NCBI GenBank assembly: GCA_951406725.2
Contig: OX597829.1
Coordinates: 37,944,001 to 38,008,000 of the forward strand
DNA length: 64,000 bases
Source of the DNA: Octopus vulgaris
Lineage: Eukaryota
Direction of reading: 5' to 3'
In this document: one piece after another, positions 4,274-51,110 of the stretch
Layout: each line of letters opens with the position of its first letter
Numbering within the stretch: position 1 is the first letter of the stretch
Program-made: the position numbers and the translations under genes
Notes under the pieces: generated by a model
The model's input: the letters and a program-made list of their open reading frames with translations, nothing else
The model's database searches: none
Told to the model about the DNA's origin: nothing

Positions 4274-4379
4274 CTAGCTACAGCAGTACATATTCTAAAA
4301 TTGGAATGATACAGAGAAGATTAGCATGGCCCCTGTGCAAGGATGAAATGCAAATTCCTGAAGTGTTCCATATTTTTTT
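4274..4379 (+). pseudogene. U6: U6 snRNA pseudogene
   Basis: ACAGAGAAGATTAGCATGGCCCCTG...TTCCATATTTTTTT; CpG-type substitutions and a disrupted 5' end. Confidence 0.92.
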
Positions 4380-13270: not shown

Positions 13271-13313
<43 letters not shown>

Positions 13314-13382
13314 GGTCCCGGGTTGATTCGGGGTTAACCACAGTAAATAAGGTACTCAATACATAGCAGAGTAAAATTAATT

Positions 13383-14195
<813 letters not shown>

Positions 14196-29092: not shown

Positions 29093-29278
29093 GCGGAGAT
29101 GTACTTGCATAGCAAGTGACCTGATCTGAGATCGTGTGCTGGAATAAAAACAATTGCAGCGTGGAAGGTGTTTATAAGCCATTTAAGAAACAAACAAAAA
29201 CCCGTTAGATTCACTTCAACATTTAAATTTAATTTGTCAAAATATTTTCGGCGCTTTGAGACCATGACCTGTTTATTT
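29093..29278 (-). mobile_element. Copy of the 49.1-49.4 kb hammerhead element (core decayed)
   Basis: Near-identical to 49238-49418. Confidence 0.8.
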
Positions 29279-48928: not shown

Positions 48929-49145
48929 CTTAAAAATAAAAGAGTAACTTAATGATAAAACGGTAATAAAATACTGAAGGAGACTACATGATTGATTGGT
49001 CTAAAACAGTTGGACAGTCCTTAAATTATATCTTAAGTAAAGGCATCTATGTTGGACAATATGTACAAAAAGACAAGGCGGTTGTGGCTGAAATAACTCT
49101 GACACCATATCATTAACATTACTCTAATGCCATTTATTTACCAAT

Positions 49146-49416
49146 TGCAGCATGGAAGGTGTTTATAAGCCATTTAAGAAACACACAAAAACCGTTAGAT
49201 TCACTTCAACATATAAATGCAGCACAAAGTTTTGTCAGTGAACAGGTCACGGTCTCAAAGCGACGAAAATATTTTGACGAATTAAATTTAAATGTTGAAG
49301 TGAATCTAATGGTTTTTGTGTGTTTCTTAAATGGCTTATAAACACCTTCCACACTGCAATTGTTTTCGTTCCAGCACACGATCTCAGATCAGATCACTTG
49401 CTATGCAAGTACATCT
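49146..49416 (+). mobile_element. Non-coding PLE-type element: inverted partial copy plus hammerhead-bearing copy, 16-bp TSD
   Basis: TSD CCATTTATTTACCAAT at 49130 and 49417; 49142-49217 is the reverse complement of about 49285-49362. Confidence 0.8.
49231..49281 (+). ncRNA. Variant type I hammerhead (G3-C8 core)
   Basis: TTTGTCA-GTGAACA-G-GTCAC..GCGAC-GAAA-ATAT-TT-TGACGAA. Confidence 0.65.
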
Positions 49417-51110
49417 CCATTTATTTACCAATACCATGGAAGTCATCAAAGTACCAATTACATTGTGTAGCCTTCCAAAGAATTAGAGGGTCAGCAGCAA
49501 ACATTTCATGTAAAAGAGTACGTTTCATTTTGTTTCGTTAAGATGGGGCTCCAACATTATCTTGATAATCCAGCTTGATGAAGGTGAATTAAATTTCAGC
49601 AACCAGTCAGTGATTAATGCTACAGCATATTTTTATATGTTCCTAATCAACAGTAACTGATTTCTACTTGAATTACTGTCTGAAGAACATGTAAAATCCA
49701 TAGGTGTTGCAACATAGCGAATGGATATTTCCCAATTCTAGTTAATTCATCATCATCATTGTTTAACGTCTGCTTTTCATGCTAGCATGGGTTGGACGAT
49801 TTTGACTGAGAGCTGGCGAACCAGATGGCTGCACCAGGCTCCAATCTTGATTTGGCAGAGTTTCTACAGCTTGATGCCCTTCCTAATTCCAACCACTCCG
49901 AGAGTGTAGTAACTCCGAGGGTGTAGCCACTCCGAGAGTGTAGTAATTGTGATATACATATATTTATACATGTTTAGCTGAACTGTTACAGTCCACACTT
50001 GTGATCCTTTGTACTCTTCAAACTCAACAATCTAACTTCATTAAAGTCACACACCCACAAAAACAGTATATATTAGTTAACTGAAGATGGATGTATGCGT
50101 TAGATATGCTTGGTGACTGAACTTTCTGTATCTTGTGTTCCTGTGGCTCTACGTTGTCCTTCATTGAAATCTAGTTCACATAGGGTTGAACTTGTTTAGA
50201 GGTTCTTAGTTTCTTGGTTTGTGGTGGTTTTGTTGTTATAATATCATAGATTTGACATTGCAAGGTTGTTCTTCATTGGGATTCTAATTCTGGTTAATAC
50301 CAGTTTAAGGGTTTCTAGTTTCTAGTGGTTTTGTTGCACACACACAAACATGCACACACACACACACATATATATATAATACATACACACACGCACATGT
50401 ATGTATGTACATATGTATGTCTGTGTCCAGTTTTCCATGATGGCATGGATTTGTTGTCATCAAGGTCTGCGTCAGTTCTTATTCAGACTTACTGTCCTTC
50501 AAGATGGCTCAAGCAACACTTGGTCCTCTGGCATGTCTTGGAAGGTAGGAATTCTGGTTAAGAACTGACCTGAATCATGATGACACATACATGGAAAACA
50601 TATAAAATGATGCTGATAATAGGTACACATATACACACATGCACAAACATATAATCCATTTGTGGAGGCACATAGCCTAGTGGTTAGAGCAGCGGACTCG
50701 CAGTCGAGGGATTGCGGGTTCGAATCTCAGACCGGGGGATGTGTGTGTTTATGAGTGTAAACACCTAAGCTCCACGTGGCTCTGGCAGAAGGTAATGGTG
50801 AACTTCTGCTGACTCTTTTGCCACAACTTTCTCTCACTCTTTCCTCCTGCATCTTGCAGCTCACCTGCGACGGACCGGTGTCCCGTCCAGGTGGGGAACC
50901 TATACGCCAAGGAAACCGGTAAACCGGCCCTTATGAGCCAGGCATGGCTTGAGAAGGAACAAACAACAAAAAGAAGATATAATCCATTTGCAGACTTAGA
51001 ACCTTACTAATTTCCATTATGTAATACTGAAAAAAAAAAAAACTTATTCTATTTGCAACATTTGAATCAAATCACGAAGCTAGCATTCCTTGGATATTTC
51101 TAAAACTTAC

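Follow-up and report, generated by a model that had tools for sequence, protein, structure and literature searches.

Does a short repeat in the genome of Octopus vulgaris carry a hammerhead ribozyme in which the usual C3-G8 pair of the core is replaced by G3-C8, and to what kind of mobile element does such a repeat belong? The question is raised by one insertion in the 64,000-nt stretch of DNA analysed here (the window; Table 1). An earlier note, made from the sequence alone, had described a hammerhead with a 7-bp stem I, the core GTGAACA and a predicted cut after 49274, all of which are present as laid out. The core (49238–49244, with G3 at 49238 and C8 at 49243) follows the first strand of stem I (49231–49237, pairing with 49275–49281) and precedes a single extra G (49245); stem II is formed by 49246–49250 and 49260–49264 and is followed by GAAA (49265–49268), which runs into the palindrome AATATT and U17, after which cleavage is predicted. 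The flanking direct repeat of 16 bp, likewise claimed before, is exact, but 4 nt of its left and 2 nt of its right copy match the element as well, which leaves 10 nt unambiguous. The inverted partial copy, previously given as 76 bp, measures 77 bp at 94.8% identity.

The window copy is slightly decayed. It has a mismatch in stem II at a site where 84 of 93 segments of the family sample described below carry the pairing G; the stem II of the earlier note thus stands in its position and as a pairing of the family, not for the window copy itself. In folding, the stems of this copy do no better than shuffled sequences (z 0.23), and the minimum-energy fold of the whole window unit does not form the hammerhead stems. 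A second copy near 29.2 kb aligns to the unit only from about A6 onward; it does keep C8, as had been stated, but it is truncated and, lacking G3, uninformative on the swap. The claim that standard searches would miss the motif is borne out for the window copy and the window: Rfam covariance models returned no hammerhead match to E 10 in 49100–49460, nor in a scan of the window.

Several other sequences in the window came to light. The miRNA matches of the Rfam scan were rejected because they arise from an inverted repeat, a long near-perfect palindrome between TA runs at 13272–13609. A U6 snRNA copy with a degraded 5' stem (4275–4377, +; Rfam 95 bits, above the gathering score) lies directly 3' of a ~300-bp repeat and is likely a retrocopy. 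No ORF of a Penelope-like element (PLE) and no copy of the sister families introduced below were found in the 64 kb.

Table 1. Positions of the unit copies and their parts in the window (TSD, target-site duplication).
Feature	Position	Strand	Basis
Left TSD, 16 nt; last 4 also match the inverted copy	49130..49145	+	sequence
Inverted 5'-truncated copy of unit nt 72–148, ending at the family's short 3' end	49142..49218	-	
Direct copy (unit nt 3–204; ~202 nt) of the ~208-nt end of the PLE pseudo-LTR: 5' UTR with hammerhead, then ORF start	49217..49418	+	
Minimal type I hammerhead motif, predicted cut after 49274	49231..49281	+	
Stem II and loop II, mismatch in window copy	49246..49264	+	
Palindromic 2-bp stem III, predicted dimerisation site	49268..49273	+	sequence; PMC4209133
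Start of the parent PLE ORF, ~29 codons from the ATG at unit nt 117	49331..49418	+	comparison with L126
PLE 'tail' between short (~149) and long (~208) 3' ends	49364..49418	+	segment ends; PMC11167929
Right TSD; first 2 nt also match the element	49417..49432	+	
Second unit copy, 5'-truncated inside the hammerhead core; C8 kept, no G3	29095..29273	-	

Family size and the G3-C8 consensus

As had been supposed, the insertion belongs to a multi-copy family, with thousands of copies in the 2.8-Gb genome. A 35-mer in which positions 3, 7 and 8 could be any letter had 1,380 exact genome matches and its reversed control none, so the motif is that of a family and not a product of chance; among the first 100 matches listed, 95 have G3-C8 and none C3-G8. 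With a shorter pattern, 6,868 G3-C8 matches were counted genome-wide against 3 with C3-G8 in the same context. Copies were sampled with a 25-mer in the 3' body (5,916 matches), taking the first places listed, all on contig 1; removal of four overlapping loci left 84 loci with 137 segments. G3-C8 is found in 78 and C3-G8 in none of the 88 segments that cover positions 3 and 8 and start at or before nt 20, and the contigs of four runs list no other letter at G3 or C8. GUGAACA, whose conservation had been proposed as a check, is therefore conserved with G3-C8 as the consensus: the literal C3/G8 of CUGANGA occurs in none of these 88 segments, and a Watson-Crick pair at 3-8 is present.

The remaining core positions (U4, G5, A6, A9, G12, A13, A14, the A15.1-U16.1 pair and H17) are each kept in 92–99% of 93–103 segments, U17 itself in 101 of 103. 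The family also has an extra nucleotide after position 9, G10.1-C11.1 and a short palindromic stem III. Subfamilies vary in loop II and outside the motif, the single common change in a stem being U-A to U-G. When intact copies are folded as whole units, stem II reaches a probability of 0.98–1.0 and the five inner pairs of stem I 0.78–1.0, and these copies show a three-way junction in which stems I and II both pair and stem I is open. Two close copy pairs (L032, L033) turned out to be kilobase-scale inverted segmental duplications of host DNA carrying the unit, and another locus (L035) contains only a different, unrelated ORF piece. One copy (L112) joins unit nt 2–31 directly to nt 61, a single case of a deletion that ends exactly at the predicted cut site.

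Ends of the copies and the parent element

The 3' ends of the segments cluster at nt 145–153 and nt 204–208, and 57 of the 137 segments begin at nt 1–4. Solo copies make up 34 of the 84 loci and head-to-head inverted copies 49; a head-to-tail tandem was found in none of the 84 sampled loci. Nearly all two-strand loci (41 of 49) pair one long with one short end, and a TA run adjoins 51 of 82 loci. This pattern of tail and inversion is the signature of a PLE (PMC8557442; PMC11167929). Among the 28 copies that start at nt 1 without the upstream sequence of the parent, 13 carry a G at position −1 in place of the template's C or T (P 0.0009 for a G frequency of 19% and 0.011 for one of 25%, both uncorrected for junction microhomology). 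Reverse transcription adds a G opposite the cap, and the −1 G would thus be cap-derived and mark the start of transcription at unit nt 1. Directly upstream of nt 1, parent copies carry a branch-like motif, a pyrimidine tract and YAG, which looks like a 3' splice site and counts against the explanation proposed below. The sharp 5' start might then be the 3' splice site of an intron in the pseudo-LTR (pLTR), as the intron of the Drosophila virilis Penelope ends at helix I (PMC4209133); we regard this as rather unlikely, because most full-start copies retain the AG, an upstream exon common to the copies was not seen, and the G at −1 is in many cases non-templated.

At two loci the end of a GIY-YIG ORF lies upstream of the unit. 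A genome search with this ORF end gave 150 scored matches, from which 12 long-ORF loci were hand-picked, and in all 12 loci fetched the unit lies about 1 kb after the stop codon, with 99–100% identity to one subfamily. Moreover, locus L126 holds a partial tandem, in which the upstream unit continues into the ORF, with the ATG at unit nt 117. Given these two arrangements, the ~208-nt unit is the 3' end of the pLTR of a young protein-coding PLE and comprises 5' UTR, the hammerhead and the first 30 codons of the ORF, which starts 56 nt 3' of the predicted cut site; nt 117–208 are this start of the parent's ORF, and the tail has about 58 nt. The earlier note had taken the unit to be non-coding and retrozyme-like, a view that does not hold for what is the pLTR end of an autonomous PLE including its ORF start, and one free of head-to-tail copies in the 84 sampled loci.

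The parent encodes a single ORF with a reverse transcriptase (RT) and, at the C terminus, a GIY-YIG endonuclease (EN; PF01541, above cut-off) that has a Cys pair between GIY and YIG. The protein contains the motifs DKSG, YVDD and CxxxCxxC, and between RT and EN a zinc-finger-like CX2-5CxxC linker, a criterion of the Neptune/Nematis clade. The Pfam RVT_1 profile did not match the parent protein, and a PDB sequence search with it had no match; its Atlas neighbours at 0.96 carry RVT_1, HTH_animal and GIY-YIG, and the closest named relative of the RT region is a predicted protein of O. vulgaris with 60% identity. Further characters of EN+ PLEs were seen in the pLTRs in partial tandem, the inverted 5'-truncated copy and the tail at one end. 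At L103, a different GIY-YIG ORF fragment lies between two inverted unit copies.

Pair 3-8 in related families

Searching with the N-terminus of the ORF retrieved relatives at about 33–46% identity, in which a hammerhead likewise precedes the ATG at this position. In one sister family (S1), the first 100 matches listed of 3,376 include 98 with C3-G8 and 96 with C in place of the normally invariant A9; S1 is a young PLE family with intact ORFs of ~1,310 aa (hammerhead at L166:6234–6281, −). A second sister (S2; L186:1497–1541, +) has U3-A8 in 89 of the first 100 matches listed of 2,155 exact ones, the others including 2 U3-G8, 1 C3-G8 and 8 C3-A8, and these C3-A8 mismatches count against our explanation. 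An older relative of the G3-C8 family has G3-C8 in 5 of 8 copies and a stem II that is different yet paired, with U-A where the young family has C-G.

For 13 aligned motifs, drawn from 17 rows that had been filtered for paired stems I and II and left unfiltered for the pairings at 3-8 and in stem III, the 3-8 columns pair in 13 of 13 (G-C 5, U-A 5, C-G 2, A-U 1), in line with the compensatory core pair claimed by the earlier note. Two-sided changes occur at 7 of 12 pairs, and slid controls drop to 26–51% paired. The stems are conserved and covary, as that note had proposed to check, with statistics that are inflated and reflect few independent events because of the stem filter and the kinship of the 13 motifs. 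A tree of 16 of 18 rows, two short rows being dropped, separates the G3-C8 group (100/100) from the U3-A8 group (96/95); it is unrooted and gives no order of core changes. That related PLE families use C-G, U-A and G-C at the same pair supports, at the level of sequence comparison, a compensatory origin of the swap.

A lone old copy (L241:1497–1542, +), which is not a shown family, has the fourth Watson-Crick option, A3-U8, and may be two transitions away from G3-C8. Another hammerhead, with the canonical core CUGAUGA, occurs in an inverted pair at L171. A DNA search with L203 was set aside, as it returned mostly an unrelated repeat.

Function, alternatives and known systems

We propose that the locus is a short copy of a PLE pLTR 3' end with a minimal type I hammerhead and a natural G3-C8 pair, and that this motif is probably a weak self-cleaving ribozyme dependent on dimerisation or on protein. 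The hammerhead is likely a self-cutting RNA kept by selection. Transcription from unit nt 1 would yield a capped RNA. With about nt 149 and nt 208 as starting points, and frequently at TA-rich sites, the parent's RT/GIY-YIG protein could copy this RNA through target-primed reverse transcription, and the direct-plus-inverted structure and the variable TSD would result. A short RNA, having one hammerhead with a 2-bp stem III, would stay uncut and be copied whole. The full pLTR-ORF-pLTR RNA contains two hammerheads that could pair via the palindrome and cut after nt 60, and the resulting unit-length uncapped RNA might be either circularised as a template or lost.

The role of pair 3-8 as a structural Watson-Crick pair would explain why the swap is tolerated; cleavage would be weak and need a second hammerhead or protein. 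In a PLE hammerhead that depends on its protein, the double swap C3G/G8C brings back part of the activity (PMC11167929); the in vitro rescue cited in the earlier note is thereby upheld, although only as a partial one in the one PLE hammerhead tested there. In a mutational scan, the double swap was the only double change that rescued the hammerhead motif studied (PMC9901934). A G3-C8 variant was less active with C17 than with G17 (PMC3884650), which, set beside the U17 of this family, gives a hint for the swap.

Starts of copies at the cut site are scarce: only 2 of 137 segments start at nt 61, which is about the background level given by 19 starts over nt 21–60. Compared with the many starts at nt 1–4, this indicates that the copied RNA is mostly uncut, which matches the low in vitro activity of PLE hammerheads (PMC4209133) and the uncut RNA of the Poseidon element PAc (PMC11167929). 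Likewise, the young, intact S1 spreads with C9, so elements of this clade can spread without a textbook core. Neither the start counts nor S1 can separate a conditional ribozyme from a purely structural one, and the absence of an Rfam hammerhead match counts against our explanation. The fold and its 3-8 pair might have lost cleavage and persist in the PLE 5' UTR for a structural or protein-binding role. Such a role would account for the missing pile-up of copy ends at the cut site and for the spread of S1, and it agrees with another PLE, in which catalytic mutants were without effect on in vitro insertion and RNA-seq ends at the cut site are absent from the data reported (PMC11167929). We nevertheless consider it improbable: pair 3-8 is a known part of the active fold (PMC3884650), every one of the 13 motifs has U or C at H17, and none of the 13 deviates at U4, G5, A6, G12, A13, A14, A15.1 or U16.1, although most of these positions had been set by the search patterns.

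A very unlikely reading is that the ribozyme is dead, that G3 and C8 arose in it by drift independently of each other, and that it was amplified by chance. In favour of this, amplification from a single master can spread any sequence through thousands of copies, and the tree implies few independent events. Against it, each of three families has fixed a Watson-Crick pair of its own at 3-8, and G3-C8 has been retained since the older relative despite changes in stem II, N7 and the loops. A non-LTR retrozyme, i.e., a non-coding tandem unit spreading via circular RNA, shares the unit size of about 208 nt, the type I hammerhead, TSDs and thousands of copies, and retrozymes may derive from pLTRs (bioRxiv 10.64898/2026.07.22.740005), but this reading is scarcely credible given ends fixed at nt 1 and nt 149/208 rather than at the cut site and a unit contiguous with the PLE ORF, and, as retrozymes are defined in PMC7229834 and in that preprint, it is refuted for the sampled loci by the coding unit and the lack of tandems.

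Among natural variants of the core pair, U3-A8 has already been published (PMC3088659; PMC4209133). No natural G3-C8 hammerhead was found in the literature searched, which left out the largest survey of PLE hammerheads (Lunse 2017), nor in the text passages and supplement file 2 matches of PMC4209133; a search for cephalopod hammerheads found none either. In this literature, as far as the relevant passages go, G3-C8 appears only as an engineered rescue (PMC11167929; PMC3884650; PMC9901934). Judged by its sequences, the octopus G3-C8 appears to be a real variant of the minimal hammerhead of PLEs, and its comparative support is unusually good. That it is the first natural high-copy animal G3-C8 hammerhead, is catalytically active, and belongs to one PLE clade that switched 3-8 among C-G, U-A and G-C under selection for cleavage, we put forward only tentatively. 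If so, PLE hammerheads would be kept for catalysis, and CUGANGA searches would miss whole families, perhaps including some PLEs reported as hammerhead-less. PLE hammerheads cut poorly in vitro and seemed dispensable in the sole reconstituted system; three Watson-Crick pairs at 3-8, a tertiary pair of the active fold, argue for selection on the fold. The families supply natural variants with G3-C8, with U3-A8 and with C3-G8 plus C9, a laboratory rescue mutant is the natural consensus here, and descriptor searches with a fixed CUGANGA undercount these motifs.

Among known systems, the metazoan PLE minimal type I hammerheads (Cervera and de la Pena 2014, PMC4209133) are alike in their position in the pLTR, the extra nucleotide between 9 and 10.1, G10.1-C11.1, the palindromic short stem III, mostly solo copies and opposite-strand pairs; the passages on them report C3-G8 and a U3-A8 variant only, whereas the octopus family has G3-C8 and a stem I of 7 bp. 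Poseidon PAc from Anolis carolinensis (Frangieh 2024, PMC11167929) also carries its hammerhead where pLTR and ORF meet, has a tail delimited by two RT start sites and uses AT-rich targets, its main template being uncut RNA. In PAc, C3G/G8C is an engineered partial rescue, and in the octopus family the natural consensus; moreover, the octopus ORF starts 56 nt after the cut site, the tail has about 58 nt and a CxxC linker is present, unlike in PAc. Neptune/Nematis-type EN+ PLEs (Craig 2021, PMC8557442) share the RT with C-terminal GIY-YIG, the Cys pair and the zinc-finger-like linker, as well as partial tandems, inverted 5'-truncated copies and a tail, which is longer in octopus than the 30–40 bp stated for them; this likeness is one of features. 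The natural U3-A8 covariants (Perreault 2011, PMC3088659) are likewise compensatory changes at 3-8, but G-C, which needs two transversions from C-G or U-A, is not among the variants in the passages of that paper. Finally, non-LTR retrozymes (Cervera 2020, PMC7229834) resemble the octopus unit in size, type I hammerhead and the likely dependence of short copies on PLE enzymes; unlike them, the octopus unit is free of tandem arrays in the sampled loci, has a minimal instead of a canonical hammerhead and is identical to the end of an autonomous element.
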